From: Verrucomicrobiales bacterium
GTDB taxonomy: Bacteria; Verrucomicrobiota; Verrucomicrobiia; Verrucomicrobiales; V1-33
Reading direction: 5' to 3'
DNA length: 64,000 nt
NCBI GenBank assembly: GCA_031411295.1
Contig: JANOAV010000105.1
Location: forward strand, 5,013-69,012
Every line of letters begins with the position of its first letter. Position 1 is the stretch's first letter. Shown here piece after piece: positions 40,589 through 61,969 of the stretch. The notes beneath the pieces were generated by a model, which searched no databases, was not told where the DNA came from, and was given only the letters and a program-made list of their open reading frames with translations. Position numbers and translations under genes: made by a program.

Positions 40589-41041
40589 ATGAAAACCATG
40601 CCCCTTTATCGCACTTTGACATTGGCAATCTTCACGCTGCTTTCCTTGACCCTCAGCCCCGGTGCCAAGGCGGATACCAGCGAGGATAAAGCTGAACTGG
40701 CCGAGCACCTCGTCGCCCTGCTTAATAAGGCCGGTTACGGCGTGCGGGATCGTTACACTTCAGGCGACTTATACGAGGGAGAGACGACTAAAGTCACAAC
40801 GACGTTGCACGAAGGTAATGCCTATCAAATTGTCGTCGCCAGTCCTTACAAAAGCAGTGACGTCGATGTTCGCATTTATGATGAGAACGACAACTTGATC
40901 GCGCAGGACAATGATGACACGGCCATGGCGGTCGTGAAGATCACCCCGAAATGGAGTGGGAAGTTTAAAATTGTCATCACCATGCATTCGTGCCGCCACC
41001 TGAGCGCGGCTTGGGTCATGCAGTATGGCTTCAAGAATTAA
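40589..41041 (+). CDS. Small secreted beta-sandwich (PPC-like) protein
   Basis: Signal peptide (AKA/D); DVDVRIYDEN.NLIAQD..TPKWSGKFKI. Confidence 0.7.
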   Translation: MKTMPLYRTLTLAIFTLLSLTLSPGAKADTSEDKAELAEHLVALLNKAGYGVRDRYTSGDLYEGETTKVTTTLHEGNAYQIVVASPYKSSDVDVRIYDENDNLIAQDNDDTAMAVVKITPKWSGKFKIVITMHSCRHLSAAWVMQYGFKN

Positions 41042-41082
41042 TCCCTGTCGCACCCATGCCTACAAGGCACGCTCTACCCAAG

Positions 41083-41526
41083 ATGAAATTCTTCTATTGG
41101 TCCTTAATTTCCTGTCTCCTGCTGAGTTGGTTGCCCCGTCGGGCCCGCGCGCAGACGGAATCAGGGGATACATTGTGCGAGGCCTATCTGGCCAGGATCA
41201 ATCACCGCGACCACTATAGTGCGAGCGGAGTCCGATTGAGTGGAGTCGCTGACATTGTGCTCCAGGATCGCCTCAACTACCTGCGCGGTGGCATCAGGGA
41301 CGCTGAGGATCAGGCGGACGGACGATCCACTGGGGCTGGGTATCGCAGCAGTGAGGAATCATTGCTGGGCAGGCGGTCGATCGATGCGACAACGGCTGCC
41401 GTAATGGTTGAGTCCACTCCCTTGGTCTGCGTCAAAATATCCAAATCCCAGCAAAGCGAGGAGCTGTATCTGGCGACTGATCTTGTTCCGATGACTCGGG
41501 CTGGAGGGAGCTACGCTAGACACTAG
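41083..41526 (+). CDS. Hypothetical secreted protein (start 41083 or 41056)
   Basis: Signal peptide (RARA/Q); motif YLARI..RDHYSASGVRL..QDRLNY..RDAEDQ looks conserved; co-oriented with the previous gene. Confidence 0.6.
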   Translation: MKFFYWSLISCLLLSWLPRRARAQTESGDTLCEAYLARINHRDHYSASGVRLSGVADIVLQDRLNYLRGGIRDAEDQADGRSTGAGYRSSEESLLGRRSIDATTAAVMVESTPLVCVKISKSQQSEELYLATDLVPMTRAGGSYARH

Positions 41527-41538
41527 GAGGACACCTCC

Positions 41539-42561
41539 CTAGCTGCGCTTCCTTCGATACCCCCAGTAACCCAAGAGGACAATGCAGGCGGCAGCAACGG
41601 CAGTCAGGGACTGGAGCTTATGTTTACCCCACACCATTCTTGGCGGGTAGGCACTGGCAAGGTGGCTGCCTGGTGCAATAATACTGCGGATTAGTGCGGC
41701 TTGGGGCGCGATCCGGGTAGCCCCGCACCACATGGGGGAGGGGTGTTCCTGGAGCGCCCCGACCTCGCGAAACGTCTCGCCTAGCACACCCCGCCACATC
41801 TGGCGTCCGTCGTGAATGGCGGCCCAGAATGAGTCAGTGCCTGATGCGGTAAAGGAATATTGCGTTTCCTTCCCTCCCACCGAGGGGTCAACGTCGAAAT
41901 GAATTCCTGCCAAGCGCCAGTTGCCGGCTTGATCCTGCAGGAGCAGTCCGCCCCCGCTGTCACCGGATGCCAGCGTGCCTTCGTCCAGTCCCGCAGCTTG
42001 ATCCCAGGACCACACGAGGAGTGATCCGAGGTCTTCGCCTGCCGCAAAATATTCTTCGACTTGATTCGTGCCCCAACTGAGTTTCCCATCAGATTCGCCC
42101 CACCTCCATCCGGGCTTGGTTCCGTTAGGTAGCAAAATTTCCTGTCCACGGGCAGCTCCACGGCCCATCAGAAAGCAGGGTTGTTTCAACTCCGAGCCAC
42201 TACTCTCATCCCACAGTTCCATCCATTGGGGAAACTCCCCCTCCACGCGGAACAGCACCAAGTCTGTCCCCGGAATGCCGGCCGATTCCACCGCCGCATA
42301 GCTTTTGCCATTCAAATCAAAGAAGCTGCCAACATTCACTCCCAGGTGCAATGCGGTGATAAACCAGTGGGGGCTGATGCAGACCCCGGTGCCCCCTTGC
42401 CAATGACCATGACTGGCCCAAGCCTTCTGCAACGTGGGATCCGCCGGAGTGCCAAAATTCCTGCCCTCTTCTCGAAACACGATGATCGCCCGGGCATCGC
42501 CCAGGAGGGCGAGGGCGAGCAAGCCAAGGGCAAGGCGGCTTAAATGAAGTCGCAGTAGCAT
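41539..42561 (-). CDS. Secreted trypsin-like (S1) serine protease with C-terminal membrane anchor
   Basis: Signal peptide (ARA/II); catalytic triad motifs ITALH, TDLVL, GDSGGG; C-terminal TM helix followed by RRKRS; its ATG overlaps the PKS-NRPS stop (TAATG). Confidence 0.88.
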   Translation of the reverse strand: MLLRLHLSRLALGLLALALLGDARAIIVFREEGRNFGTPADPTLQKAWASHGHWQGGTGVCISPHWFITALHLGVNVGSFFDLNGKSYAAVESAGIPGTDLVLFRVEGEFPQWMELWDESSGSELKQPCFLMGRGAARGQEILLPNGTKPGWRWGESDGKLSWGTNQVEEYFAAGEDLGSLLVWSWDQAAGLDEGTLASGDSGGGLLLQDQAGNWRLAGIHFDVDPSVGGKETQYSFTASGTDSFWAAIHDGRQMWRGVLGETFREVGALQEHPSPMWCGATRIAPQAALIRSIIAPGSHLASAYPPRMVWGKHKLQSLTAVAAACIVLLGYWGYRRKRS

Positions 42562-45500
42562 TAGGTAAGCATCGGGCTGGGGGTGAGCTTGGCGAGGTGG
42601 CGACGCAGCTTGTCTGCCATCTGACTAACATTTGGCTCATCGAAAATCTCCAAATGATTACCCGGGACGCGATCTATGATGAGCCGATCCACCAAACTGG
42701 TCCAGCCATAATCCTCGCTGAGGTCAAACTTATCGCTGACTTCACTGCTGCGGAAGAGCAGCATCGTGGTGGCCAGCGGTGCCGCTCGATAGCCCTCGGC
42801 CGCCTGGATATTGGCTTCCCGAATCTGCACATAACGCAGACGTTCTTCCTCCGCCCTGACCCCTTGCTTGAGCAAACGCCGCGCAGAAGCAGTCTCGGCG
42901 TCGGTGCGGAACCGCTGAATCAAGCCGGAACTAAAACGGCCTCCGAGTTGCAATAACTTGCCCGCCACATTGTGGGATTGACTCGTGCGCCAATTCACGC
43001 TGATGCGCTCACCGAGCGTGTATTCGCGAGCCGGCACATTGGGGTTTTCCGTATCAAACATCACTAGTAAGGGAACCTCCTCACCAGCCGCCAACAGTTG
43101 CTGCGCCATTTCATAGGCCACTAAACCGCCATAACTGTAGCCGCCGAGCACGTAGGGGCCGCGGCGTTGGGCCAGTCTGATTAAGGCCACATACTCTGCC
43201 GCGACCGCCGGAATCGGGATCGATTCGATGGGCAGCGATTCATCGATCAAGGCGGGCGATTCCACAGTGTAGAGTTGCCGCTCCGTCCCGAAGCGCGAAA
43301 GCAACCCCTTGTAAAACAGCGCTCCGCCATCTCCGCCATGAATTCCGAAGAACGCCAGTTCATCCCCCGTTGGTTGAATACAGGTTAGGGGGGAGACCTT
43401 GCCGCGGGTGGCATTGGCCGTCGTTTCGATCACCGTGGCCAATTTCTCCAAGGTGGGGGCGCGGAACAAGGTGCCCAGCGGGAGGGCGACGCGGAAGTCA
43501 GTCCGGATACGAGTGAACAAACGCAGGCCGTGGAGCGAGGTGCCGCCGATTTCGAAGAAATTATCGTCGCTGCTTACGGCGGTGAGCCGAAGGATGTCCT
43601 GCCAAATTAACGCCAGTCGTTGCTCGAAATCCGTGCGCGGAGCCACATAGGCTCGTGCCCGGTCGGTGGGAGGCACAACCATGTCAGGTTGTGGGGCGGA
43701 GAGTGCTTGGCGGTTCAGTTTGCCGTTTTCGGTGAGCGGGAAACTCTCCATGCAGACGTAAGCAGAGGGGACCATGTAGTCCGGCAGTTTCGCTTGCAGG
43801 TGCTTGCGGAGGGCTTCGCTGGTGGGGAGATCTTTGTCATACACCACAAACGCGGCCAGATACGTTTCGCCATCCGCATTCTGCTGGGGCAGAACGGCGG
43901 CATCGCGCACGTCCGGATGGGTTAAGAGCACGGATTCGATTTCCCCTAGCTCAATGCGGTAGCCCCGCAGTTTGACCTGCTGATCCGCCCGCCCCAGATA
44001 CTCCAACTCGCGCCCTGGACGGAAACGTGCCAGATCTCCCGTGCGATACAATTTCGCTCCGGGCCGACCAGTCAAATGATCAGGCACGAAGCGCTCCGCC
44101 GTAAGTTCTGGGCGGTTTAGATAGCCTTGAGCCAGACCATCGCCACCAACATACATTTCCCCCACGCAACCAAATGGCACCGGTTCACCTGCTGTGTCCA
44201 AGAGATATATTTGCAGATCAGGAATGGGCACCCCGATCATGCTCCCGCCTTTCATATCTGCTGTAGTTAGTGGACGATAGGTCACATGCACGGTAGTTTC
44301 AGTAATGCCATACATGTTGACCAACTGCGGTGATTGATCTCCATGGCGGGCGAACCAGGGCTGCAAGGCCGCCATTTCCAGCGCCTCACCACCGAAGATG
44401 ACGTAGCGCAGACTAAGCGCCGGAGCCTGCGACAAGGTTGCTTCTGCCGCCATCAGTTGTTTGAAGGCACTCGGCGTTTGATTCAGCACGGTGACCTTTT
44501 CTGTCGCCAGCAATTCATAAAATTCATCAGGGGAGCGGGCCAAATTAAACGGCACGACGACCAAGCGACCGCCATACAGCAGCGCACCCCAGATTTCCCA
44601 GACGCTAAAGTCAAAGGCTGCGCTGTGGAAGAGGGTCCAAACGTCACGGGCGTTGAAGTTGAACCACGCCTCCGTGCTCTGCATTAAGCGCGTCACGTTC
44701 CGATGAGTGATCCGGCAGCCCTTCGGCTGGCCGGTCGATCCACTGGTGTAAATCACATACGCGATGTCATCCGGAATGATGCTGGTTAGAGGATTTGTGG
44801 TCGGGAAATCTGTTAGCGCGTCATCGATGAACAACGTGCGTCCAGCGTGTTCGGGCAGTTGTTTCAGCAGACTGCGCTGCGCCACTAGCACCGGGGCGGC
44901 AGCGTCTTCCAGCAGGAAGGCCAGACGCGCGGCAGGGTAGCTCAGATCCATGGGGACATAGGCGGCTCCCGCTTTCAAGATCCCCAGAATGGCCACCACT
45001 AAAGGATTGGCGCGCTCCAGGCACAGCCCCACCAGCATGCCGGGGCGCACCCCGGCCTCAATCAAGGCGTGGGCCAGTTGGTTGGCGCGGGCGTTCACTT
45101 CACCATAGGTCAGGTTTTGCGTGCCGCAGGTCAGCGCCAAGGCCTGTGGATGCTGCTGGGCTTGTTGTTCGAACCAAGCATGCAGACAGAGATCTCCTCC
45201 AGCCTTGCGGCCATGAGCGTTGAAGCCGTGGATCAGTTCGCTGCGTTGCCCGGTGGTGAGCATGGGAAGCCGGGATATTTCCATTTCTGGATGGGCGCAG
45301 AGTGACTGTAACAAACGTTGATAGTGCAGCATCCATTGCTGGATTGTCTCCTCGCGGAATAGTTCGGAGCGCGCAGCACATAACAGTCGCAGATCCTCTG
45401 CCCCCTGATAAGCATAGAGGGTCAGCGGGAAGTTGGACCGCAACTTGGGATTCAATATCGTCGTGAAGGCCAGTCCGCCTGCTGCGATCGTGTCAGCCCC

Positions 45501-48500
45501 CATCGATTCCAAACTAAAGGCCGTCGGCACGAACTGCTGGCGCTCCTGGCCGCTGATGCCCTTGAGTTCATTCAGAATTTCTCCTAACGTGCAGTCTTGA
45601 TGGTCCATCGCCTCCATCACTTGTTGCCGGACCTGTTCCAGGAAGCTCAGCGCCTTGGTCGATCCATGGACCTTGGCCCGCAGCGGGAGAAACTGCACGC
45701 AATGCCCCACCAGTCCGGCTTGCCCCGTGGCCGCTTGTCCGGCAAAGGGCACGCCCACCAGAAAATCATCCTGCCCTGTCAGTCGATGCAGCAAGACTTC
45801 CCACGCTCCCAGCATGATTTGAAATACCGTGAGCCGTCGCTCCTTCGCGATGTGTTTGACCTGATCCAACAATCCCGCAGGCAGGGTTAAGGCCACGGAG
45901 AAAGTATCGTAGCCCGGTGCCTTGCGGGTAAAGTCTGTCGGCAGCGCGAGCGGAACTGGAGGGTTGGCCAAGCGCTGCAACCAATAGGCCTTCGAGGCCG
46001 CGCCCTCGCCCGAGGCTCGCTGGATGCGCTCATCAGCGGCATAGGCATCGAAGCGTGGGGCCGGAGTCGCGAATGGCTTCTGCTGCTGCGTCAATTCATA
46101 CGCTTGCGGTAACTCTTGGAGGAGCACTCCGAACGACCAGCCATCACAAATGATGTGATGTGCCGTTAGGATTAAATGATGTTTCTGCTCCCCCAGCTTG
46201 ATTAAAGCCGCCCGCAACATGGGGCCGTGGTTCAGCGCGAACGGGGTTAGGAAATGTTGCCGCCGCACTTCCTTCAGTTGCAGTTCCTGTTCTGCGCCAC
46301 TGAGTTCGCCTAGCTCCAGCAACGGCAGCGGGAGGCGCACATTGGCGGCAATGTGCATCCCTTCCCCGTCTTCATCAAACGATGCTCTGAGGGCCACGTG
46401 GCGTTCCAACAGCATACCCAAAGCCTGATGCAGCGTTTCGGGCTGCAATTCCCCGTTGATCTCCACCGTCACAGATTCATGGCAAGCCGTGGAGGCTTGC
46501 TCGTCGAGCGATGATGCCAGCAGCAATTCCTGCTGCGCTGCGGTCAGCGGGGCATAGGACGGCATGAAAGTGGCCACCACTTCCAAGGAGGCGGGTTTCG
46601 AAGCTGCCGCTGCCATGTCTTGCTGAGTGGGGAGGAATCCTCCCGCTTGCAGTGCGCGCACACTTTCTTTAAAGGCGGCTATCACTTGCGCGATCTCTTC
46701 ATCGGTGTGCTGGGTGCAGAGGAAACTGCTGCGCCCCGCCCACACATGGATGCCGCGTAGGCGCAGATGGAGAAATAGCAGTTCCGTGTATTTCAACTGC
46801 GGAGCAAAATTTACAAAATAGTAGCTGCTGAAGTGGGTTAGCCGAATCGGCACTCCAGCATCCTGACAAAAGGTATTGATGTCGCCCACGAACTTCGTCG
46901 TGCGTTCATTCATCCACGTTTGGAGTTGCGGCCCCTTTTCTTTGAGATGCAGCAACACGGCCTTGGCCGCCGCCAGTGCCAACGGATGGCGCACAAAGGT
47001 GCCGGCAAAAAAAGTGACCCCAACTTCCGGTCCAGAGTCATCCCCATACTGCCACTGACCGCCATCCAGTGCGTCCAGGAATTTCCGCTTCCCGGCCACC
47101 ACGCCAATGGGGAAGCCGCCGCCGATAATTTTGCCATAGGTGGCAATGTCTGCTTCAATGCCAAAATAACCCGCGGCCCCCCGGGGATGGATGCGGAAGC
47201 CGTTCACCACTTCGTCCAAGACTAACGCGATTCCATGTTCTGCGGTAATCGCCCGCAGGGTGTGGAGGAACTCCGCTGGTTGCAGTTCGGGACGTCGGCT
47301 CTGGACCGTTTCCACCAGCACCGCAGCAATTTCATGCGCATGGTCGCGAATGATCTCCAGGGACTCCGGGTTGTCATAATCCAATACCAAAATGTTCTCT
47401 CCCACGGCCTCGGGAATCCCCGGTGCGATGGGGATGGTGTGCAGTTGCTCGCCCTCCATCATCGGTCGCACTAGCACCTCGTCCATGATGCCGTGGTAGG
47501 CCCCGGCAAACATCACGATCTTATCGCGACCGGTCACGGTGCGGGACGTGCGAATGGCCGCCATCAAGGCTTCGCTGCCGGTATTGCAGAAGCTCACGCG
47601 CTCATGTCCGGTGAATTCGAGAAACAAAGTGGCTACTTCGCCCACCAGCGGATTGGTTGGTCCAATCTCGATTCCCTTCTCCAACTGCGCCTGCACCGCA
47701 TCCATCACAAAGGACGCGCGATGGCCGAGGAAGCCAACACCGAAGCCTTGGGTGATGTCGATGTATTCATTGCCATCCACATCCCAAATCCGACCGCCCT
47801 GAGAGCGATCCACAATCAGCGGATAGACCGCTTCTTTCCACAAATGATTGAATCCAGCGACTGCGCGCGGATCAGCAAAATGGTGGCGATGCTCCTGCGT
47901 GAAGGCCTTCGAGCCCTTGGTTTTGGCGGTATAGGCCGCCAGTAACTCATCCAAGTGAGCGCGTTGAGTTTCCGTCAGCGATCCATCCTTGGCCGTTTGC
48001 AACGGACGGAACGGTCCGAAGGCAATCCGCTTGTCAGAGTTCACGTTCTGACTCATGGCGCGCACGGAGAACTTCTGCACCGCACCAACGCCCGGTGCCA
48101 GCAGCTCCCGCCGCAAATCCCCAATCGCTTGTTCGATGATGGCCAGACGATCTCCCGCAGGAGCAGGGACGCTGCTTGGAAGCAATGACAGTGGCTGACT
48201 TGGGGCTGTTGGTTGGAATTTTTCCGGTGGCAATTGGGCATCGAGATAGTCTGCCAACGATTGCAATGAGCCCAGTTCCTCCGCGATCTGGCGGAAGGTA
48301 ATTTTAACGCCGAAATGCTTCCGCAGGAAAATGCTCGCCTGAGTTAGGAACAGGGAGTCGAAACCGAGATCAAAGAATGAAGCTGCCGCAGGCGCACTGC
48401 TGAGATCAATGCCGCTGGCCTTGTGTAACTGGGTTCGCAGTTCGCTTAACAAGTGTTCTGGCCGGGAGATGCTCCCCACAACAAGGAGTGGGGGACTCAA

Positions 48501-51236: not shown

Positions 51237-51243
51237 GGGGAAG

Positions 51244-54200
51244 TTAGGAAAGCGGTGGGAGTCCGCGCGCCCGTGCCATGGCGGCTCGGGCAGCGGTCGC
51301 CCGGGCGCGGGCTTGCGTCGCCATGTTCTGGGCAGCGGTGATGGGGAGGGCGGCTGGTTTCGCGGGGTGCAGTGGTGGGGCGGTTTCCAGCAGCCCCGCC
51401 AGCGAGGCAATCGTCGGATGCGAGAAAACCTGCACAATCGAGAGGGTCAAGCCCAACTCACTGCGCAGTCGCTGATGCACGCGTATCATCAGTAATGATT
51501 GCCCCCCAAGATCGAAGAAATTTTCGTGGATCGAAATGTCAGTGAGGCCAAAGGCGCGTTGCCAGATCTCGGCCATGGCCTTTTCCAAAGGCGTGCGCGG
51601 AGCGACACGTTCGGCGGTTCGCGTCACTGGCAGGGTGGTCGGGGCCATGCCCGCTGGCAGTTGGCAGGAGGCCATGATGGTGGACAATGAATGCTGCTCT
51701 GGGCCGATGAGCTGCAGGAGGAGTTGCTTCCATTCCTCCAGCAGCAAGCGGGCCCGGGCGGGGGAACACGAGGCCGCTTGATGGGCTAATAATATTTCGT
51801 AGGTCGTCCCCGGCGTAATCATTAGCGTCAGCGGGTAGTTCGTATGCACTGGCCCGACGAACTCCGACAACGCGACCTCGGGGCCAAAGGTCATGACCCC
51901 ATGTTGCGTCTGGAAGTTTTGGAACACCAGCAAACTGTCGAACAAGCGTCGATTCCAGGGGATCTCACTCCATTCCTGCATTTGCGCGATGCTGGAATGC
52001 TGATGCCCCGTCAGTGTAAAAAGCTGGGCCTGAACTTCCTTGATAAAATCTTTGGAGCGCTGATCCGGCCTGACTTGCAGGCGGACCGGCAGGTTGTTGA
52101 TAAAGGGGCCGACGATGCGTTCCACGCCCGCTAGTTCGCTGGGACGACCATTGCTGGCAGTGCCGAACATCACTTCCGTGACATCGGCACAACGTGCCAA
52201 GAGCAGTGCCCAAGCGGCATGGAGCACCGCCCCGTTGGTAACTTGGTGCGCCCGAGCAAAACGTGTGAGCCGATCCACCACATCAACGCCAAGCACGATC
52301 ACGGTTTCGGAGAATTTCCGGCCGACCCCTTGATGCTGTAAGGTTTCGAGCGGCACTGGGGTTGGTGCCGTAAGGCCACGAAGTTCCGCGCGCCAGAAAT
52401 CAGCCTCAGCTTCTTGCGGTCTGGCCTGCAGCCATGCCAAATATTCCCGATACGCGGGTGCCACCGGCAGCGGGGTGCTTGAGGTCATGAGCGACGAAAC
52501 CTCCTGGAAGACAATTGGCCAGGACCAGCCATCCATCAGGATTTCCGGCACGCACCATAGGAATCGCCAGGTGGTGTCCGTCAAACGGATCAGCGCGAAA
52601 CGTGAGAGGGGAGCGATTGTCAAATCATTCGGTCGCGCTGCGTCTTGCAGAAGAAATTCCGTCCACTTTGCAGCGTGCGTTTCCGCCGCCTGTCCGCGCC
52701 AATCGTCGAGGTGCCAGTAGGGTTGCAGTCCATTCCTCACGACTTGCACGGGCTGGTTCAATTGATGGGAATGAAAGGAGGTGCGCAGCAACCCATGGCG
52801 CTGCAAGACTTGCTCCCAGGCGGCCTGGAAACGTGGCACATCGAGTGGCCCCTCCAACCGGCTGTGCCATTGGTCATAGCCGGCATTGGTTTTGGCTACG
52901 GCGGCTCCATAATACAATTCTTGAATCGGAGAGAGCGGCCAGACATCCGCCACCTCTCCTGGCGCTTGTTGGAGCTTGGCTAGTTCAACCGGGGAAAGTT
53001 TCACCAGCGTGAAATCGTTGACCTCCGGAGGCGCAGCCAATCCCTGGCTGGCCCGTGTGATGATTTCCCGCAAGGCGCTGGCGAAAGCTTCCACTAATGG
53101 TTGCACGCGAGCTGTAGCAAGGCGATCGGCGTTATACTTCCACTCGAGTTGGAATTTCTCCTCGCGAATAAAGCAATCGATCTCATGCTCGTGCAGCCGC
53201 ATGGCGGAGAAATGATGCCACGGTCCGGTGGCTTCAGGGGCGAGCGTGAAGAGAGTGGATTCGGCTGTCAGTTGATCGAGTCGGCCCCAGAAGTTAAAAG
53301 CAATTTCAATCTCGCTAGGCGGCAAAGGAGAAGTGTCTGCATACCGCAGGAAACCATAGCCAGCACCATTTTGCGGCAGGCTCTGGAGTTGGTCCCGCAC
53401 GTGTCGCATGACGGCAAGGATGTCATTACTTTCCGGCGGCAAGGTGAGGCCAAGTGGAAAGAGTGCGGTAAACCAACCCACGGTCCGGCTGAGATCTGCG
53501 CTGCCGAAAAGTTCCTCCCGTCCATGCGCCTCTAAATGCAGCCAAACTTGATCACGCCCCAACTGCCGATGACAGGCCAAGAGGAAGGCACTGAGCAGCG
53601 CGTCTTGGATGCGCGTGCGATAAACGTTGGGAACCTTTTGCAGCAGCGTCGTTGTTTCCTCAACGGTTAGTTCAAAGCGCAAGGTGGTCGCGCTCCCTTC
53701 AGTGTTAGTGTGGCTGCGATTAGGCTCCAGCAATGGCGTGATGGTTCCCGGCAACCGCTGTGCCCACCAGGTCTTCTCGGCCATGGCCGCTGGAGAGCGT
53801 GACCAAAGCTCGCCCAACGCCGCCGCATCCGCAAAGGGCGTAGGCACGGCTTCCAGCGCGGCACCATGATAGGCTGCTTCAAGGTCGTGCAGCAGAATAT
53901 TCCACGACACGCCATCCACCGCCAAGTGATGCGCGACGCACAGTAAGCGCCCCGGACGATCCTCGCCCAAGTCCGCATACACCAAGCGCAGCAGCGGGCC
54001 ATGCTCATAGTTCAAGCGCGATTGCGCAGACTCGCTGAGTTTGAGGATTTTCTGCGCCAATTTGCCATTGGCGAAACCATTTAAATCATGGCATTCCAAG
54101 GTCTCCAAGACCTCCAAAGCGGAAACCTTCTGCTGCCACCCCGAGGCACCTTTGGTGAATCTGAGCCTCAGCGCCTGATGCTGAGCAAGCAGCGCAGCTA

Positions 54201-57200
54201 CGGCGCGACGCAGCTTAGGCACCTCCAGCCGTTCATTGACCGACAGTAGGAAAGCTTGATTCCAGTGGTGACTAGCCTGGAGTTCCTGGGCAAAGAACCA
54301 GCGCTGAATGGGCAGCAGTGGAATGTTCTCGGTCGAAGCATTCAGGGCGGATTGGGTCGCTTGCCCCAAGCCTTCGATCTTTGCCAGTTGGGCGATGGTT
54401 TGATGTTCGAACAACTGCCGCGGCGTGAAGGATAACCCTACTTTGCGAGCTTGGGCAATCATGTGAATGCTCAAAATGGAATCACCACCGAGGGCAAAGA
54501 AGTTATCGTTCACACCTACACGGTCCACCTTTAGGACCTTCGCCCAGATGCGTGCTAACTGCGTTTCCGCTGCGGTAGCAGGCTCCACGAATGCTTGCGT
54601 CAGGAGTTCGCGCGGGCCGCTGGGAGCTGGTAATGCCACGCGATCCAGCTTGCCGTTGCTGGTGAGAGGAAAATGCTCCAAGACCACGAAAGCCGCCGGC
54701 ACCATGTAATCTGGCAACTTAATCTGGAGATGCGAGCGGAGCGACTCAACGCTGGGTCGCTCGGCTTTGGGGACGAGATAGGCCACAAGTCGCTTCTCCC
54801 CGGGATGATCTTCGCGCGCCAGCACCGCCACTTCCTGCACTTGCGGATGAATTGTTAGGATGGATTCGATTTCTCCCAATTCAATGCGGAAGCCACGAAT
54901 TTTAACCTGTTGATCGATCCGCCCCAGATACTCTACGTCACGGCCGGGGAGGAAGCGAGCGAGGTCGCCCGTGCGGTAAAGCCGGGCGTTAGGCAACGTG
55001 GAAAATGGATTGGCAATGAAACGCTGTGCAGTCAGTTCCGGACGCTGCAAGTAACCCTGAGCAAGCCCGGCCCCGCCGACGAATAATTCCCCGGGCACGC
55101 CTAACGGCACCGGTTGGAGGTGCGCATCGAGGATGTAGAGTTGGAGATCCGGGATCGGAATTCCGATCACGCTGCCCCCGTGGACGTCGGCGGCCGAGAT
55201 CGGGCGGTAGGTCACGTGCACCGTTGTTTCCGTGATGCCATACATATTCACCAGTTGAGGCGTCCGGTCGCCATGACGCTCGAACCATGGTTGCAGGCTT
55301 TGCATTTCCAAGGCTTCGCCTCCGAAGATGACGTAGCGTAGAGCCAGATCCAGGGGCTGGGTGGCGGCGGCCTCTGCGGCCATGAGTTGACGGAAAGCGC
55401 TGGGGGTTTGATTCAGGACGGTGACTTGCTCTGCTGCCAGGAGTCGATAAAAATCCTCGGGCGAACGTGAGGTGTGGTAAGGCACGATCAACAGGCGACC
55501 ACCATACAGCAGCGCGCCCCAGATCTCCCAAACGCTGAAGTCAAAAGCCACACTGTGAAATAGCGTCCAAACATCCGTGCTATCAAATCCAAACCAAGCC
55601 TCGGTGCTTTGGAACAAGCGCGCCACGTTGCGATGTGTGACGATGCACCCCTTGGGTCGCCCCGTAGAGCCGCTCGTGAAAATCACATAAGCCGCATGGT
55701 CGGGGGTGACTTCGACGGATGGATCATTGGAGTTTCCACCGTGGTAGATTTGCAGGTCATCCACATACAGATTCTTGCAACCGTGCCGTGGCAGGCGGGC
55801 GCTGAGCTTGCGTTGCGTTAGCAGCACCGGAGCCGCCGCATCTTCCAGCATGAAACTCAGACGTTCCGCCGGATAACTCAGATCGATGGGAACGTAGGCG
55901 GCACCACATTTCAGTATCGCCAGCAAAGCCACGATCAAATCCAGGCTGCGTTCCACACACACGCCCACCAGCATGCCCGGGGTCACCTGCTGACCCTGCA
56001 AATAATGCGCCAGTTGGTTCGCCCGTTGGTTGGTCTGGGCATACGTCCAGTTCGTGCCCTCACAAGTAAGCGCAATGTCGTTTGGCGTGCGGGCCGCAAT
56101 CCCTTCGAACCAATGGTGCAGGCAAATGTCTCCACCGAATTCGCGCTGCCCCTGATGGAAATCCTCCACCAGTTCGCGACGTGCTTCGCTGGTAAGGATT
56201 TGCAATTCGCTCAGGGGCTTTTCAGGATGGTCGCAGAGCGATTCAATCAGCATTTCGTAATGTTGCAGCCATCTCTCCGCGGTGGCTTCCGTGAGCACTG
56301 CGCAGTTGTATTCCAACACCAACGCATAACCTTCAGGCAACGGAGTGGTCTCCAAGACCAGATCGAATTTGGCCCCTCCGTTGTGGATGCTAACGGGCTC
56401 GCAGGCAAGGCCGGGCACGCTGAAATCCGCCCCCGCAGAATCCTGGAGGACAAACAAATGCTGGATCAGCGGGGGATGGCTGAGATCGCGCGGCAGGTTC
56501 AGGGAATCGACCAAATTCTCGAAAGGCAGATCCTGATGATTCAAGGCGTTCACTACCGTCGCCCGAGCGGACGCAAGGAAATCCAGACCTGACTGCTCAG
56601 GGTGGCATGACGTCCGGAGAATGACGGTATTGACAAAACAGCCCATCACATTCTGCACCGCTGAATGCGTGCGCCCCGCCACTGGGGTGCCGATGACGAT
56701 GTCGGTGGCTCCGCTTAGTCGATGCAGGAGCACTTGGAAGGCCCCGGCCAGGATGACGAAGGGCGTGGTTTGCACTCGTTGCGCCAGGGCTTCGATGCGT
56801 TTCCGGAGATCGAGTCTTAATCCCCGCGCCACCACATCGCCCACATAATTTCGCACCGGAGGGTGCGGGCGATCCGTCGGCAGTTGGAGGATCGGTGGGG
56901 CTCCGCGCATTTGCTCTTTCCAATAAGCCAGGTCTGCCGTGAAGTCCCCGGTCTCCAGACGGCGGTTGATCCATGAGGCAAAGCCGGCACACGTGGCCGC
57001 GAGTTGCGGCCAGACTGGCTGACGCTGACGCAAGGCGGCGTTGTAGGCCAGCGCCAAATCCTGATAGAATAAGGTGACCGACCAACCATCCGAGATGATG
57101 TGGTGGAAGGTAACCACGAGCAAATGCTCCTCGGGCGAAATCTGATAGAGCAAGCAGCGACACAGCGGACCTTCCGCCAGACTAAACGGGATGCGGGCGT

Positions 57201-59595
57201 CAGCCGTGGCGAGTTCCAATGCGGCCTCCAAGTTGCCCACCTGGCTCACCTGCCAGTGCAGTGGGGTTTCCGGATGCAATTTCTGACTTGGACGACCGTC
57301 AATGCTGGGGAAGGTGGCGCGCAGCACGCTGTGACGTTGGACCACGCTGCGCAGGGCCGCGGCTAGGAAATCCTGTCGCAGTGGACCTTGCAGGCGACGT
57401 GCCGTGGGGATGTTATAGGCCGCGCGATTCCCGATTAGTTGATCGAGGAACCAGAGCCGTTGCTTCGGTGGCGACAATTCCGTCTCCTCCTGCGCCAGCA
57501 GATTCAGCTCGGAGGCGTCAATCCGCGGCAAGTTAGGCTGTTGCAATTTTGCGGCTAGCAGCGCCACGGTTGGTTGGGTAAATAACAGCGTGAGGGGCAG
57601 TCGGACGTTGAATTGATCCGCTATGAGGGAAACAATGCGCGTTGCGGCCAGCGATTGGCCACCAAGGTCGGTGAACCGATCCATCACGCCGATAGGATAG
57701 ACTTGAAGCACTTCCTCCCAGATCTGCACGAGGCGCGACTCCATTTCGTCGCGCGGGGCGACGAGTTCCGTGGCACTGACAGGGCGGGCCCGTTTGCGGG
57801 CGCTGGCGACGGCTTTGGCGATGTTGGCCGCCGATTGAAATTGGTTGGCGATGGCCGCGAAATCCGGCCGTGTCACTGGGGCGGCTTCATTGAATGGCGC
57901 TGAATCCGCAGCGGGAACCGGAAGGGTGACGGCATCCGCATTAAATTTCACCGCTCTGGCTCGCGTGACGGGGAAATGATAGTTGCCGTCCTTGAAGCCG
58001 TCCGGGCAGACTGCTTCCAGGAAATTTGCCATCGGTTGATTCCGTGCCGTGGCTTTGAACGGCAGCACAATGCCGAGGCTTTGGCGCGCAGCGGCTTCGT
58101 CGCCTAACTGCGCCAGCATCCGATGCTCGACTCCCTTTCCCAGCACGCGACACGACAGCAGAAAATTTTCCACAAAACAAAGCGGACCGCGCGTGCGGTA
58201 GATTAGCAAACCCACATCGCCATAGTCACCGAAGCGATCCTTCACATGCAGCAGCAAGGCATGCGTGTCCGCCGCCTGCAGCGCATTGGCGACCTCGGCC
58301 TCCGTGCGGCGGACTCCAGTGGCGTTGAACTGATTCGTGCGTTGAGTGAGTTGAGATACCCGCGGATAGTCGAAGAGATTCGGGATGCGAAATGTTAGCT
58401 GCAATTCCAGCCCGTCGATAAAATCTGCGAACGAGGTGGCTTGTGCCGCCGCTTGCGTGCGCTGGGCGTTGACCTGCATCAACTCCGTGCGTCGGCCATC
58501 CTCCTTGGTGGCAGCATGGATGTCCAGTGCCCAGTGGTGATTGATGAGCGGGAGGATCTCATTTTCCTGAGCCGGGAGCGTGATGGTCGTGAGGTCCGGA
58601 AATGCCGCCGCCACCTCGGCACATTCGATGGGGTTATCATCGATGAAGACCACGGCATCCGGATGGATATTCCATTCGGAGAGCAACTCCCGCACGCTGC
58701 TGGATTTCGGTCGCCAGGAAATTTTCCAGCCCGCAAAATCCGCCTCTTGGAGGATCATTTCCGGTCGGGCCAAGGTTGCGCGAACGTCGCGCACTTCATT
58801 TTTACTGGCTAGGCCGAGCAAAGCCCCTTGTTGCTTCAAGTGCAGTAAATGCCGCTGGAAGGCTAAGCGCGCTGACCCCAGGGTGATTCCACCAGCGCCG
58901 ACTTCACCCACCACGCCACCCCACAGCGTCTGGTCCGCATCCACGATGACGGCCTTGCAGGGAGCTTGCAGCAACGTTCGCGCCCGGCGCATCAAGGCTG
59001 CCCCCAGCGCGGCAAAGTATTCCGGGGCATAGGGCACATGGCCTTGCCGGTCACTTTCTGGATCATGGATCTGGCTGACGGGATACCACACCTCCACCTC
59101 CTCCGCCGTGATCACACTGAAGCCAGGCAACTGGCGCAACGTGCGCCCACACTCGTCGTAGGCCAAATGCAATGACTGCTGCAAGGCGGGTTCCAATTTC
59201 GCCAGATCGCTCAGCGGACAGAGCATTACAATCGTCGGCCGATGTGCCTGCCCCGCAAAGATCTGCATGGCATCCAGCAACTCCAAGGTCACCAGCCTAA
59301 CCTGATCCAAGCGACCTTCTGTGGCGCTGGTGAATTCGCTCCCCCCCTGCCGCAAGGCATCTTCCAGCCGCAGCAGGAAAAAATTTACGCCCGGAACATC
59401 ACTGCGCGCGGGACTGGCTGGATTGAGTAACTCTTGAAAAAGTTGATTGTAACCCGCCAGCGAAATTTCCGCCGGATCCAACTGCAAGCGCGGCAACCAG
59501 AAAGCAAAATGCTCCTCCAACGGCTCCACCGTAAACGAAGCTGCCACCCGGAACATCCGGGGTGCAGGGGGATCGTTTGCTAGTGCCGTGGACAT
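51244..59595 (-). CDS. NRPS with FkbH-like loading domain: FkbH-ACP-C-A(Thr)-PCP-E-C*(no catalytic His)-PCP (start 59595 or 59610)
   Basis: FkbH: DADQTLWGG, VFIDDNP.E, QLTQRTNQFN, DRFGDYG, LSCRVLG. Carriers: LGGQSL, LGGDSI, LGGQSL. C1: HHIISDG. A code DFWNIGMV. E: HHLAVDGVSW, EAHGRE, RTVGWFT. Final C: PEILMDGWS. Confidence 0.95.
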   Translation of the reverse strand: MSTALANDPPAPRMFRVAASFTVEPLEEHFAFWLPRLQLDPAEISLAGYNQLFQELLNPASPARSDVPGVNFFLLRLEDALRQGGSEFTSATEGRLDQVRLVTLELLDAMQIFAGQAHRPTIVMLCPLSDLAKLEPALQQSLHLAYDECGRTLRQLPGFSVITAEEVEVWYPVSQIHDPESDRQGHVPYAPEYFAALGAALMRRARTLLQAPCKAVIVDADQTLWGGVVGEVGAGGITLGSARLAFQRHLLHLKQQGALLGLASKNEVRDVRATLARPEMILQEADFAGWKISWRPKSSSVRELLSEWNIHPDAVVFIDDNPIECAEVAAAFPDLTTITLPAQENEILPLINHHWALDIHAATKEDGRRTELMQVNAQRTQAAAQATSFADFIDGLELQLTFRIPNLFDYPRVSQLTQRTNQFNATGVRRTEAEVANALQAADTHALLLHVKDRFGDYGDVGLLIYRTRGPLCFVENFLLSCRVLGKGVEHRMLAQLGDEAAARQSLGIVLPFKATARNQPMANFLEAVCPDGFKDGNYHFPVTRARAVKFNADAVTLPVPAADSAPFNEAAPVTRPDFAAIANQFQSAANIAKAVASARKRARPVSATELVAPRDEMESRLVQIWEEVLQVYPIGVMDRFTDLGGQSLAATRIVSLIADQFNVRLPLTLLFTQPTVALLAAKLQQPNLPRIDASELNLLAQEETELSPPKQRLWFLDQLIGNRAAYNIPTARRLQGPLRQDFLAAALRSVVQRHSVLRATFPSIDGRPSQKLHPETPLHWQVSQVGNLEAALELATADARIPFSLAEGPLCRCLLYQISPEEHLLVVTFHHIISDGWSVTLFYQDLALAYNAALRQRQPVWPQLAATCAGFASWINRRLETGDFTADLAYWKEQMRGAPPILQLPTDRPHPPVRNYVGDVVARGLRLDLRKRIEALAQRVQTTPFVILAGAFQVLLHRLSGATDIVIGTPVAGRTHSAVQNVMGCFVNTVILRTSCHPEQSGLDFLASARATVVNALNHQDLPFENLVDSLNLPRDLSHPPLIQHLFVLQDSAGADFSVPGLACEPVSIHNGGAKFDLVLETTPLPEGYALVLEYNCAVLTEATAERWLQHYEMLIESLCDHPEKPLSELQILTSEARRELVEDFHQGQREFGGDICLHHWFEGIAARTPNDIALTCEGTNWTYAQTNQRANQLAHYLQGQQVTPGMLVGVCVERSLDLIVALLAILKCGAAYVPIDLSYPAERLSFMLEDAAAPVLLTQRKLSARLPRHGCKNLYVDDLQIYHGGNSNDPSVEVTPDHAAYVIFTSGSTGRPKGCIVTHRNVARLFQSTEAWFGFDSTDVWTLFHSVAFDFSVWEIWGALLYGGRLLIVPYHTSRSPEDFYRLLAAEQVTVLNQTPSAFRQLMAAEAAATQPLDLALRYVIFGGEALEMQSLQPWFERHGDRTPQLVNMYGITETTVHVTYRPISAADVHGGSVIGIPIPDLQLYILDAHLQPVPLGVPGELFVGGAGLAQGYLQRPELTAQRFIANPFSTLPNARLYRTGDLARFLPGRDVEYLGRIDQQVKIRGFRIELGEIESILTIHPQVQEVAVLAREDHPGEKRLVAYLVPKAERPSVESLRSHLQIKLPDYMVPAAFVVLEHFPLTSNGKLDRVALPAPSGPRELLTQAFVEPATAAETQLARIWAKVLKVDRVGVNDNFFALGGDSILSIHMIAQARKVGLSFTPRQLFEHQTIAQLAKIEGLGQATQSALNASTENIPLLPIQRWFFAQELQASHHWNQAFLLSVNERLEVPKLRRAVAALLAQHQALRLRFTKGASGWQQKVSALEVLETLECHDLNGFANGKLAQKILKLSESAQSRLNYEHGPLLRLVYADLGEDRPGRLLCVAHHLAVDGVSWNILLHDLEAAYHGAALEAVPTPFADAAALGELWSRSPAAMAEKTWWAQRLPGTITPLLEPNRSHTNTEGSATTLRFELTVEETTTLLQKVPNVYRTRIQDALLSAFLLACHRQLGRDQVWLHLEAHGREELFGSADLSRTVGWFTALFPLGLTLPPESNDILAVMRHVRDQLQSLPQNGAGYGFLRYADTSPLPPSEIEIAFNFWGRLDQLTAESTLFTLAPEATGPWHHFSAMRLHEHEIDCFIREEKFQLEWKYNADRLATARVQPLVEAFASALREIITRASQGLAAPPEVNDFTLVKLSPVELAKLQQAPGEVADVWPLSPIQELYYGAAVAKTNAGYDQWHSRLEGPLDVPRFQAAWEQVLQRHGLLRTSFHSHQLNQPVQVVRNGLQPYWHLDDWRGQAAETHAAKWTEFLLQDAARPNDLTIAPLSRFALIRLTDTTWRFLWCVPEILMDGWSWPIVFQEVSSLMTSSTPLPVAPAYREYLAWLQARPQEAEADFWRAELRGLTAPTPVPLETLQHQGVGRKFSETVIVLGVDVVDRLTRFARAHQVTNGAVLHAAWALLLARCADVTEVMFGTASNGRPSELAGVERIVGPFINNLPVRLQVRPDQRSKDFIKEVQAQLFTLTGHQHSSIAQMQEWSEIPWNRRLFDSLLVFQNFQTQHGVMTFGPEVALSEFVGPVHTNYPLTLMITPGTTYEILLAHQAASCSPARARLLLEEWKQLLLQLIGPEQHSLSTIMASCQLPAGMAPTTLPVTRTAERVAPRTPLEKAMAEIWQRAFGLTDISIHENFFDLGGQSLLMIRVHQRLRSELGLTLSIVQVFSHPTIASLAGLLETAPPLHPAKPAALPITAAQNMATQARARATAARAAMARARGLPPLS

Positions 59596-59900
59596 ATCAG
59601 GAAATGGCATCAACCCCTTCGAGCAAGTTTCGCACAAACACAGAACTCCGTTCACACGACAAGGCGGCGTGCAGATAGCTCCTTAGCATATGAGTTGGCA
59701 TCTCAAGAAGGTCCATGGTGGTCGGTTGGCTAGAAAGGGGCATTTCTAGAAATTGTGGTATTTATCCTAAATCATATTTACCCCACAAGCAACAAATATC
59801 AACCAATCAAAAATTTCTGCACCCGCTTTCTTTTAAAAACGCGCCGCATTCGCAGATTTGAGAGCCTGTCTGAGGGGGATGTGTTTCCAGCCGCAGGGCA

Positions 59901-59928
59901 CGGTGGCAGCCGCGCGCCCGTCTGAAAC
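59901..59928 (+). repeat. Dispersed repeat CGGTGGCAGCCGCGC..CGTCTGAAAC (related copy at 61851-61880)
   Basis: Identical 15-bp and 10-bp blocks are shared with 61851-61880. Confidence 0.7.
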
Positions 59929-59938
59929 CAGTTAGAAT

Positions 59939-59962
59939 GTGGAGCAGTCCGCTGGACTGCTC
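59939..59962 (+). repeat. REP-like palindrome GTGGAGCAGTCCGCTGGACTGCTC (copy 2)
   Basis: First 22 bp are identical to 15355-15376; stem GAGCAGTCC/GGACTGCTC. Confidence 0.8.
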
Positions 59963-60026
59963 ACGGACTGCTGAACTCTTTCCAGATCAGCCCAGCGGCT
60001 GATTATCATTGGGTGACCGCACCACG

Positions 60027-60323
60027 TCAACGACGCCTTAGGCCGAATGCGGGGCTACGCTTGTCATGCCGGAGGCAGATTACTTTGATTTTCAATGGCA
60101 AAACTTCGAAAAGCACCGCAAACGGAAAGCGACGCAGGTGCTTCCTCCTGACGCTCCGCGAGTTTAGCCAAAAGCCATTTTGCTCGGGATTAGCCCTAAT
60201 CTTACTTACCGTCAGCAATACTTGATCGAAAAATTCATCACCTAGTCCAGCTCTCTGCTCGTTGTAAAAACCGACGGCATCTTGCACATCCTTTTGCACA
60301 AGAAGGTGGTAGACTATTTTCAT
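60027..60323 (-). CDS. Type II toxin, RelE/ParE family
   Basis: 98 aa; DVQDAVGFYNEQRAGLGDEF..RRFPFAVLF..ICLRHDKRSP; directly downstream of an addiction-module antitoxin. Confidence 0.88.
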   Translation of the reverse strand: MKIVYHLLVQKDVQDAVGFYNEQRAGLGDEFFDQVLLTVSKIRANPEQNGFWLNSRSVRRKHLRRFPFAVLFEVLPLKIKVICLRHDKRSPAFGLRRR

Positions 60324-60329
60324 TCGTTG

Positions 60330-60575: not shown

Positions 60576-60647
60576 ACTCCCTCCTTATAGCCTAATTCAT
60601 GGGTATCACAAGAAATAAATCAGCAGAATGGAAATTCCGACTCCCGC

Positions 60648-60724
60648 TTGAGTTCGGGTCTTGGGCCCGAAGGCATCACGGCAACCCTGCATATTCCCGA
60701 CGGGCTGACAGACCCGAACCCCAA
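60648..60724. repeat. Imperfect long hairpin downstream of the orphan C-terminal module
   Basis: GTTCGGGTCT (60652-60661) pairs with AGACCCGAAC (60710-60719); GCCCG/CGGGC extends the stem. Confidence 0.6.
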
Positions 60725-60764
60725 CGGAAATGGCGGCAAAATGCACGCCACTCCCACTCAAAAA

Positions 60765-61968: not shown

Positions 61969-61969
61969 A

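Follow-up and report, generated by a model that had tools for sequence, protein, structure and literature searches.

MycA and ItuA, of the mycosubtilin and iturin pathways, have the domain order KS-AT-ACP-AMT-C-A-PCP, in which a class III aminotransferase domain (AMT) with a PLP-lysine motif stands between the polyketide and the peptide parts. MycA receives a long fatty acid as primer from an acyl ligase and a carrier, and many NRPS modules follow it. In the NRPS lines for vioprolide, corramycin and cystomanamide an FkbH (HAD) domain replaces an adenylation domain and puts a glyceryl unit onto a carrier, as described in the accessible parts of PMC8949500 and PMC10099666, where vioprolide and corramycin are given the order FAAL-ACP-C-FkbH-T and an O-acylated glycerate. 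The same parts of PMC8949500 describe the glycopeptide X domain, which has the condensation fold and no working HHxxxDG motif and is kept for another role, and module 9 of SyrE (syringomycin), a C-T unit without an A domain of its own.

The operon described here lies at 41539-59595 on the minus strand of the window, the whole stretch of 64,000 nucleotides that was analysed. Its second gene shares with MycA/ItuA both the domain order and the PLP-lysine motif; unlike MycA it has no ligase domain, its KS would take a glyceroyl-aminoacyl chain from an NRPS, and its TE follows after a single amino acid. Unlike the vioprolide and corramycin lines, the FkbH domain opens the first protein, no FAAL is present, and the C domain that comes next would form an amide to Thr. 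The features, with the evidence for each in brackets, are as follows; C′ denotes the third C domain of gene 1.

59596-60026, minus strand: untranslated stretch 5′ of gene 1, 431 bases (flank ORF and promoter scan)
51244-59595, minus strand: gene 1, FkbH-ACP-C-A(Thr code)-PCP-E-C′-PCP (ORF, translation, Pfam/NCBIfam, motifs)
58009-59595, minus strand: FkbH unit, N-terminal region (residues 1-210) plus TIGR01686 domain (214-529) (NCBIfam, motifs)
57526-57774, minus strand: carrier after FkbH, GGQS, Ser648 (Pfam, motif)
56170-57492, minus strand: condensation domain C1, HHIISDG intact (Pfam, motif)
54649-56106, minus strand: adenylation domain A1, 10-residue code DFWNIGMVHK (Pfam, structure-relative search, code reading)
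54379-54561, minus strand: PCP1, GGDS (Pfam, motif)
53011-54348, minus strand: E domain, HHLAVDGVSW (motif, solved relatives)
51676-52998, minus strand: C′, condensation fold with VPEILMDGWSW replacing HHxxxDG (motif, alignment, tree, solved relative)
51376-51633, minus strand: PCP2, GGQS, without its own adenylation domain, then an Ala/Arg-rich tail (Pfam, alignment, motif)
42561-51236, minus strand: gene 2, KS-AT(HAFH)-ACP-AMT-C-A(Thr code)-PCP-TE, 2891 aa (ORF, Pfam/NCBIfam, motifs)
46650-47918, minus strand: class III aminotransferase domain (AMT), MycA-like, YGKIIGGG (Pfam, motif, solved relative)
42618-43343, minus strand: TE domain, GYSYGG (Pfam, motif)
41539-42561, minus strand: gene 3, signal peptide, chymotrypsin-fold serine protease, C-terminal helix, RRKRS tail, 340 aa (translation, alignment, AlphaFold, Foldseek)

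ORF calls and translations give three intact, tightly packed genes within the listed minus-strand ORFs 41539-42561 (340 aa), 42561-51437 and 51244-59655. With starts at ATG 59595 and ATG 51236, genes 1 and 2 encode 2783 and 2891 aa, respectively; the next ATG in gene 1, 13 codons in at 59556, gives the 2770 aa of the database gene call (P0004), and either ATG is possible as the start. Genes 1 and 2 are separated by a spacer of 7 bases (51237-51243), while gene 2 ends and gene 3 begins within the overlap TAATG, base 42561 belonging to both the stop and the ATG. The first-pass annotation had described this spacing and the three domain strings, and the ORFs, profiles and motifs bear out both. Logan contigs from run X1 span the full 18.4 kb and differ from it by 2 substitutions, no insertions or deletions being listed, X1 being perhaps the source sample and thus not independent; runs X3 and X4 hold diverged pieces only and were left out of this assembly check. 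Two PF01648 matches above cut-off in the host genome (contigs C58 and C87) indicate that the host is able to activate the carriers with a PPTase.

Scans of 41000-42700 and 59400-60700 returned one promoter-like site each and no terminators, a yield not above that of shuffled sequences; this also holds for the site at 60030-60002, at the upstream edge of the 431-base stretch. Among the flanking ORFs no exporter, regulator or tailoring gene stands beside the operon, and no P450, stand-alone A domain or transferase is present within ~5 kb on either side. The flanks hold toxin-antitoxin pairs (upstream of gene 1), a methyltransferase, an ABM monooxygenase, a MurC-MurB fusion and a giant surface protein, none of which could be tied to the operon.

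Domains were called with Pfam and NCBIfam profiles followed by motif inspection. Gene 1 matches FkbH, three PP-binding, three Condensation-family stretches and AMP-binding. The combination associated with FkbH-type glyceryl loading is present: a TIGR01686 match at residues 214-529 (279.8 bits against a cut-off of 146.65), the motifs DADQTLW (DADQT at 219-223) and SCRVLG (481-486), which we take to be the HAD DxDxT motif and the conserved Cys, and an adjacent carrier at residues 608-690. The only relative of the FkbH region among solved structures is an uncharacterised HAD protein (3slr). Both AMP-binding matches are strong (E 4e-90 and 8e-92) with SGSTGxPKG present, and A1 and A2 carry the identical code DFWNIGMVHK, which presumably specifies Thr, in agreement with the Thr-type codes proposed in the earlier annotation; code positions were placed from core motifs, and 1AMU is among the A-domain structure matches. 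The predicted substrates of FkbH, AT and the A domains all presume literature motifs of this kind. The nearest solved relatives of the E domain are the E domains of PvdL, TycB and GrsA, and the five carrier motifs of the two synthetases are GGQS, GGDS, GGQS, FDSL and GGTS.

Gene 2 matches KS, AT, two PP-binding, Aminotran_3, Condensation, AMP-binding and Thioesterase. Its KS has the Cys-His-His set (TACATS, HGTAT, NFGH), its AT has GHSxGE (GHSAGE) as well as the HAFH motif noted previously, its C domain (C2) has HHIICDG, and its TE has GxSxG (GYSYGG). The best solved relative of the AMT is the AMT domain of mycosubtilin synthase A (6kfm, E 1.5e-128), with GSA aminomutases at ~1e-52, so the suggestion of a MycA-like aminotransferase holds; the order KS-AT-ACP-AMT-C-A-PCP together with an AMT closest to that of MycA places the module among MycA-type beta-aminating modules.

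Full-text searches of open-access papers turned up no characterised pathway that has this domain string, as the first-pass annotation had said, and the literature searched held no known product for either of the two forms of relative described below; the window holds a real orphan cluster. The carenaemin cluster of Collimonas was considered and set aside: in the accessible part of PMC8313283 it combines AMT, E and PKS parts, but in a different domain order, with different A codes and in 11 genes.

The domain string is, however, no one-off. A genome search places it in a large family spread across phyla, as the less frequent, FkbH-primed form; we describe this family from the best 80 related loci in public genomes. 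The core A-PCP-E-C-PCP (the last PCP without an A domain) followed by KS is present in 69 of the 80, and AMT also in 60. According to their records, the 80 belong to Verrucomicrobiota, Acidobacteriota, Nitrospirota, Gemmatimonadota, Pseudomonadota, Planctomycetota, Actinomycetota and others. Most begin with a starter-type C domain (HHxLLDGRS), and 7/80 with FkbH. The first listed A code reads DFWN[IV]GMVHK in 54 of the 63 scorable loci and is of Ser type in L036 and L041, while the second A varies. One genome (G001) has a domain order identical to that of the window operon, at 53-82% identity per domain.

Two forms of relative can be set beside the operon. The first, C(starter)-A(Thr)-PCP-E-C-PCP plus KS-AT-ACP-AMT-C-A-PCP-TE, shares with it all parts past the starter; in most loci a starter-type C replaces FkbH-ACP-C, and in half of them the third C retains HH. 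The second, FkbH-ACP-KS-AT-ACP-AMT-C-A-PCP-TE (P0072, Haloferula rosea by source; P0040, Roseibacillus sp.; G027; G037), has the starter and the whole of gene 2 in common with the operon, but the Thr-E-C′-PCP part is wholly missing. Judged from domain content, the window operon is a putatively glycerate-primed branch of this widespread cross-phylum family, and its architecture is not unique.

All catalytic motifs of the operon are intact except the His pair of C′: HHxxxDG is present in C1, E and C2, while the third C domain reads PEILMDG, with no His at the motif. Its nearest solved relative is a C domain of PvdL located after an E domain. Among homologues of ~2770 aa the third C reads P[EA]xxxDGWSW in 17/17, while C1 and E keep HH. 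In the tree the third C domains without the pair form one clade (36 rows, SH-like support 98) nested among HH-bearing rows, which indicates that the domain has persisted long after loss of the His pair; the clade spans several phyla, with upstream domains conserved. The position of the catalytic His is occupied by E, D, A, G, C, P or S, so the clade has no conserved substitute base. Identity to two orthologues is 57% and 41% for C′, compared with 61% and 38% for C1 and 53% and 36% for E, and the Ser of PCP2 is invariant in 10/10 aligned sequences. By these comparisons C′ is evidently under selection and conserved like the catalytic domains. The HH pair is kept in the third C of 40 of the 80 best related loci (as HHH in 16 of these 40), which suggests that the ancestral domain did catalyse a reaction, with PCP2 carrying the acceptor, and so counts against the relay reading set out below. 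The glycopeptide X domain, an LCL-related domain that recruits P450s from its place in the last module, differs from C′, which is nearest to post-E C domains, has its own PCP and a KS next, and has no P450 gene nearby; identity with an X domain was rejected on the position of C′ before a PCP and KS and on flanking ORFs without P450.

We give roughly an even chance to the reading, drawn from domain content and motifs, that the intact three-gene operon encodes a hybrid NRPS/PKS line for a small polar product in which C′ serves as a relay. FkbH would load a glyceryl unit onto the first carrier, C1 would couple it to Thr placed on PCP1 by A1, and the E domain would epimerise the Thr. The chain would then move to PCP2 by way of C′, which, being DCL-like and without His, may act as a non-condensing, D-selective relay or gate that adds no residue. 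KS-AT would add one malonyl unit, the MycA-type AMT would convert the beta-keto group to a beta-amine, C2 would add a second Thr, and the TE would release the product by hydrolysis or closure of a small ring. The invariant core of the family would be A(Thr)-PCP-E-C-PCP / KS-AT-ACP-AMT-C-A-PCP-TE. The colinear product proposed in the first-pass annotation is chemically consistent and stands to that extent; what it passes over is C′-PCP2, which is conserved and selected and may add a second Thr or have another function.

The wider proposal, that C′-PCP2 would be a new NRPS part, a non-condensing, D-selective relay taking the epimerised chain from PCP1 through PCP2 to KS, and that the family would share an N-acyl-D-Thr-derived vicinal-diamine (aminostatine-like) scaffold and a biological role, appears quite unlikely to hold as a whole. 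We know of no precedent for a C domain as a thioester-to-thioester relay, which counts against the relay. An unlikely course is that A1 charges both PCPs of gene 1 with Thr and C′ condenses without the His pair, so that glyceroyl-D-Thr-L-Thr would reach the KS and the product would contain three Thr-derived units. This would explain why PCP2 keeps an invariant Ser with no A domain of its own and fits the constancy of the first A code beside a variable second one; condensation on PCP2 is also the plain reading for the half of the relatives with HH in the third C. The A domain of yersiniabactin HMWP2 reportedly serves two carriers. Loading in trans of modules without an A domain is documented for SyrE in the accessible part of PMC8949500. 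Against condensation by C′, the same part of this review calls HHxxxDG essential for peptide-bond formation, and the His position is unconserved across the clade to which C′ belongs.

Distinctly improbable, in our estimate, is a non-colinear product, which would arise if C′-PCP2 altered the beta-hydroxy residue in some other way (by dehydration or ring formation) or if PCP2 were supplied with a unit by an enzyme whose gene lies elsewhere. A beta-hydroxy residue (Thr or Ser type, as listed above) nearly always precedes E-C-PCP, and HHHxxxDG, the motif of the beta-lactam-forming C domain of nocardicin NocB, is what the 16 relatives with HHH carry; the C′ motif in the window, however, has no His whatever. 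C-like domains without His can serve as docking platforms, as the accessible part of PMC8949500 describes for the glycopeptide X domain, but the ~5 kb on either side of the operon hold no partner of the P450, stand-alone A or transferase kind, and an extra C-A-PCP ORF beside the cluster was found in G008 alone. G008 also bears on whether the operon is silent or decaying, with a dead C′ that blocks the line so that no product is made: its gene-1 homologue has an in-frame TAA, and no gene-2 homologue lies within 11 kb downstream, the gene-2 homologue being on a separate contig, next to a first gene of which the contig end leaves the C′-PCP part. Together with the loss of the His pair this is what speaks for decay, which we regard as very improbable given that the three frames of the window are open across 18 kb, all other catalytic motifs are intact, the 36-member clade is spread over several phyla with conserved upstream domains, and C′ is as conserved as C1 and E.

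Gene 3 scores under the Pfam gathering cut-offs (Trypsin_2, 22.3 against 27.6 bits; Trypsin, 20.5 against 20.6), and a search of its sequence against solved structures gave nothing meaningful (best E 0.28). Its AlphaFold model (pLDDT 91.5), however, matches Spl proteases, DESC1 and chymotrypsin in Foldseek with probability 1.00, and of the triad H72 and D100 are invariant and S202 is present in at least 90% of 34 aligned relatives. As modelled, gene 3 is a predicted secreted serine protease of the chymotrypsin fold (S1), the family to which the first-pass annotation had assigned it. Its membership of the cluster family fared less well: among the 80 best related loci 1 has the protease next to the cluster, as has one further genome of the same genus, and it thus accompanies the cluster in close relatives only. 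G004 has both synthetase genes and no protease match with this query, and in G003 a protease homologue lies beside a cluster without the Thr-E-C′-PCP part. Its absence from 79/80 loci and the context in G003 indicate that the protease is only weakly linked to the chemistry; it may be a lineage-specific accessory that possibly acts on the exported product. For the cell-envelope role that had also been raised, no supporting evidence was found.

A more specific role, in which gene 3 would mature an exported precursor by trimming it in the periplasm, follows the prodrug logic of ClbP in colibactin and of ComB, proposed for corramycin. We consider this role possible but rather unlikely. It accords with the TAATG overlap with gene 2, with the signal peptide and C-terminal helix, and with the neighbourhood in relatives: a homologue abuts the synthetase gene in G001 (53%) and lies ~0.4 kb downstream of it in G003 (63%), and homologues apparently share contigs with 86% and 78% relatives of gene 1. 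The predicted product of the first module is an N-acyl-D-amino acid, as in prodrug systems; like ClbP (colibactin, xenocoumacin type), gene 3 would be a membrane-anchored exported hydrolase in a line that starts with such a unit. On the other hand, its fold is that of S1 and not the S12 fold of ClbP, the D-residue made by the line is Thr-coded and not Asn, the protease is unconserved in the family, its partner cluster in G003 has no D-Thr module, unlinked paralogues (33-40% identity) are found in seven searched genomes, and the operon has no exporter gene. Assignment to the ClbP type of prodrug system was rejected on the S1 fold, the Thr code and the presence of the peptidase in 1/80 loci.

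The window offers a compact 18-kb, three-gene entry to an orphan family of hybrid clusters found repeatedly across many poorly studied soil and freshwater phyla. Haloferula rosea (the source name of P0072), a cultured species with the simplest relative, is a possible handle at the bench. The structure of the product would reveal what use these bacteria make of the nearly invariant Thr-E-C-PCP / KS-AT-ACP-AMT core, and would tell whether a C domain passes the chain on without forming a bond.

The ORF listing places three minus-strand reading frames in 41539-59655 of the window, and their translations bear out the spacing and the intact genes described in the first-pass annotation, whose observation of a three-gene cluster is likewise confirmed. 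Genes 1 and 2 are separated by 7 bases, and the stop codon of gene 2 and the start codon of gene 3 have one base in common, in TAATG. The three genes are as follows.

51244-59595, minus strand: gene 1, ATG at 59595, 2783 aa
ATG at 51236, minus strand: gene 2, 2891 aa
ATG at 42561, minus strand: gene 3, 340 aa

The collection's own gene call (protein P0004) begins gene 1 at an ATG lying 13 codons downstream, for 2770 aa, and either ATG may be the true start. The GC content of the operon (0.57-0.60) is similar to that of its flanks. Three listed Logan contig pieces from sequencing run X1 together span 41400-59800 in full, with two substitutions and no insertions or deletions listed, and short pieces from X2, a second sample of the same study, match without differences at the 8 places listed. 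The read contigs argue only weakly against frameshifts in the operon, since X1 may be the source sample of the genome.

The domain strings of the first-pass annotation also stood up to Pfam and NCBIfam searches, motif checks and searches of solved structures. Gene 1 encodes FkbH, a carrier, a C domain, an A domain, a carrier, two further condensation-family stretches and a carrier, and gene 2 encodes KS, AT, carrier, class III aminotransferase (AMT), C, A, carrier and TE. Landmarks of these domain types are DxDxT plus a Cys in FkbH, HAFH for malonyl in AT, and the PLP lysine in aminotransferases. The motif check found DADQTLW and SCRVLG in FkbH, the carrier Ser motif in all five carriers, HHIISDG in C1 of gene 1, HHLAVDG in the second condensation-family stretch, HHIICDG in C2 of gene 2, TACATS, HGTAT and NFGH in KS, GHSAGE with HAFH in AT, YGKIIGGG in AMT, and GYSYGG in TE. 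The second condensation-family stretch of gene 1 is nearest, among solved structures, to the E domains of PvdL (102-526), TycB, bacitracin synthase 3 and GrsA. For the AMT, the closest solved structure is the AMT domain of mycosubtilin synthase A (E = 1.5e-128), with glutamate-semialdehyde aminomutases reaching only ~1e-52. Specificity codes were read from 113 A domains aligned to A1, the A domain of gene 1, with the ten positions set by core motifs. Both A domains of the window, 65% identical to each other, carry DFWNIGMVHK, which we take to be a Thr code.

The third condensation-family domain of gene 1, C*, has the motif VPEILMDGWSW, with no His. Its nearest solved structure is the PvdL C domain located after an E domain, which places its origin in the D-donor type of C domain. 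Using an alignment of C* and PCP2 (the carrier that follows it, without its own A domain) as query, a scan covering 185,579 species at one genome each gave 411 pattern matches, 324 of them confirmed by tblastn. All family counts rest on the best 80 of these 324 loci, in which domains were called by BLASTP against the window's own domains, so that domain types absent from the window would be missed. Among the 80, the third C domain has HH in 40 (HHHxxxDG in 16 of these), lacks it in 38 and is gapped in two. In a FastTree tree of 78 third C domains, rooted on the window's other condensation-fold domains, 36 His-less domains form one clade (SH-like support 98) nested among HH-bearing ones. Three cyanobacterial domains represent a second, separate loss, and the tree needs two changes in all. 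The likely direction is from HH to His-less, as read from a quick tree with long outgroup branches. We also noticed a third His (HHHxxxDGWSW) in the C domain between E and the A-less carrier at L044, L049, L053, L057, L070, L077, L086, L091 and eight more loci, from Chthoniobacter and Gemmatimonadaceae relatives; an HHHxxxDG-like motif reportedly occurs in the beta-lactam-forming C domain of NocB.

HH is kept in both C1 and E in 17 of 17 homologues of ~2770 aa, and C* is as conserved between orthologues as C1 and E are. The upstream catalytic domains are therefore under selection and their product is used, so the chain must pass C*-PCP2 by some route; a dead operon is very improbable. Members of the His-less clade have E, D, A, G, C, P or S where the catalytic His would stand; the remainder of the motif (DGWSWP) is invariant, as are many further columns. 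In the scheme that we prefer, and to which as a whole we give an even chance, FkbH would load glycerate, C1 would join Thr to it, E would epimerise the Thr, and the chain would move to PCP2 through C* acting as a non-condensing gate. KS-AT would then add one malonyl unit, AMT would aminate the beta-keto group, C2 would add a second Thr, and TE would release the product. The outcome would be glyceroyl-D-Thr-derived 3,4-diamino-5-hydroxyhexanoyl-Thr, linear or as a small ring, which is the colinear product proposed by the first-pass annotation, an interpretation that is partly supported here. The main rival, which we find doubtful, is that C* still condenses and A1 serves both PCP1 and PCP2, giving one more Thr. 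Less probable again is that the beta-hydroxy residue undergoes some other chemistry or that PCP2 is loaded in trans.

The product of gene 3 matches Pfam trypsin models only below their cut-offs, a sequence search of solved structures found nothing, and its 37 relatives in the protein collection are nearly all unnamed. Across an alignment of 34 relatives, H72 and D100 never vary, and at least 90% retain S202, which lies in GDSGG. An AlphaFold model from this alignment (mean pLDDT 91.5) predicts a helix at the N terminus (residues 2-19), a body rich in beta structure and a helix at the C terminus (residues 313-339). Foldseek matches the model with probability 1.00 to S1 peptidases, among them the staphylococcal Spl proteases, DESC1, chymotrypsin and many more. 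Tails of PEP-CTERM-like type close the more remote relatives, and the tail of gene 3 (a helix, then RRKRS) resembles a variant of this kind of anchor. The protease is best regarded as an accessory particular to its lineage. Gene overlap and co-occurrence in close relatives are the sole basis for a maturation role, which is possible but tentative.

A comparison with 41 related genomes located the same three genes in the same order in G001, of the same genus (53-82% identity per domain). Genes 1 and 2 are present in G004 (44% identity over gene 1), with no match to the protease. In G008 the gene 1 homologue is interrupted by an in-frame TAA, and the 11 kb downstream of it contain nothing related. 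In G003, of the same genus, a split FkbH-carrier protein is followed by KS-AT-ACP-AMT-C-A-PCP-TE and the protease (63% identity), without the Thr-E-C*-PCP part. At least ten proteins, each of ~3640 aa, combine this short form in a single chain; one of them carries the name Haloferula rosea in its source, another Roseibacillus sp. Elsewhere in the family, one C domain of the starter type stands in place of FkbH-ACP-C. Adjoining such a cluster in G008, on the opposite strand, is an extra 893-aa ORF with a partial C domain, an A domain and a carrier (L014, contig C160, 6613-9294, plus strand).

Upstream of gene 1 are 431 untranslated bases, the end of a large fn3-bearing ORF, and the following.

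60027-60323: partner ORF of the antitoxin gene
60330-60575: addiction-module antitoxin gene, beyond the untranslated stretch
61400-61822: PIN-domain gene

A segment of ~365 bases (60751-61115, holding ORF 60765-61112) is a 76-82% copy of 61956-62311, the 3' end of a large ORF (61970-63985). The PIN-domain gene and a small partner ORF sit between the copies, an arrangement that suggests insertion of a toxin-antitoxin cassette accompanied by partial duplication. A GC-rich motif of ~30 bases (core GGTGGCAGCCGCGC) occurs at 59901-59928 and 61851-61880 (mean 0.08 matches in shuffles; none of 100 shuffles reaches two); the second copy makes up one arm of an imperfect inverted repeat formed by 61852-61874 and 61918-61940. 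Downstream, all on the opposite strand, lie two small family-less ORFs, a methyltransferase, a 796-aa ORF with a weak CAP-domain match, and an ABM monooxygenase. The 796-aa ORF (37126-39516, plus strand) is 53% identical over 738 residues to ORF L011:1900-4191 of G001, which directly follows the protease gene on the cluster's strand; it is therefore a conserved neighbour that differs in orientation, and no homologue was found in the G003 stretch. Next to the operon there is no gene for an exporter, regulator, P450, MbtH or transferase. Two PPTase matches and one to MbtH lie elsewhere in the genome, and a second, larger NRPS locus (contig C42, 5456-22753; open frames of 4764 and 1123 aa) has an MbtH gene at 19608-19733. 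The remainder of the window is unrelated to the operon; it includes a 2922-aa ORF (6420-15188, plus strand) with Laminin_G_3, PA14, CotH and two Lamin-tail domains, probably a giant surface protein, and a 772-aa ORF (3836-6154, minus strand) with Mur-ligase, MurB FAD-binding and MurB C-terminal domains in one frame, an apparent MurC-MurB fusion.

The gene 2 side is a beta-aminating module of the MycA type, known from mycosubtilin, here without the fatty-acid start of the MycA architecture. FkbH occurs inside the peptide lines of vioprolide, corramycin and cystomanamide, and in vioprolide and corramycin it comes after FAAL-ACP-C, unlike in the window (PMC8949500, PMC10099666). PMC8949500 also describes a His-less C-like domain with another role, the X domain, and a module without an A domain in SyrE. 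The carenaemin cluster was ruled out as a match, its architecture being different (PMC8313283). A His-less C domain with its own carrier between an E domain and a KS was not found in open-library full text, nor did a full-text search of the open literature, main texts only, find a characterised pathway with the architecture of the operon, which is a real orphan cluster.

KS follows C-PCP in 69 of the 80 loci, and 60 have AMT as well within the sequence retrieved. Seven loci start with FkbH and 55 with a C domain; in the other 18 the start is truncated or of another kind. Of the 63 scorable loci, 54 list DFWN[IV]GMVHK as their first A code. Nine depart from it: L036 and L041 with Ser-type codes, L061 with an odd code, three cyanobacterial loci of different architecture, and L029, L040 and L042, where a truncated or broken first A domain means that the listed code comes from the second. 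Second A codes are variable (DALWLGGTFK, DVWH[FI]SLVDK, DILQLGM[VI]WK and others). L039, L053, L057, L059, L070, L077 and L086 carry the two synthetase genes as a fusion, in a single frame of 4100-5500 aa; L039 is the FkbH-primed form, with a frame of 5493 aa. By record titles, the family extends over Verrucomicrobiota, Acidobacteriota, Nitrospirota, Gemmatimonadota, Pseudomonadota, Planctomycetota, Actinomycetota, Armatimonadota, Methylomirabilota and others, and the operon is the glycerate-primed branch of this large uncharacterised family.
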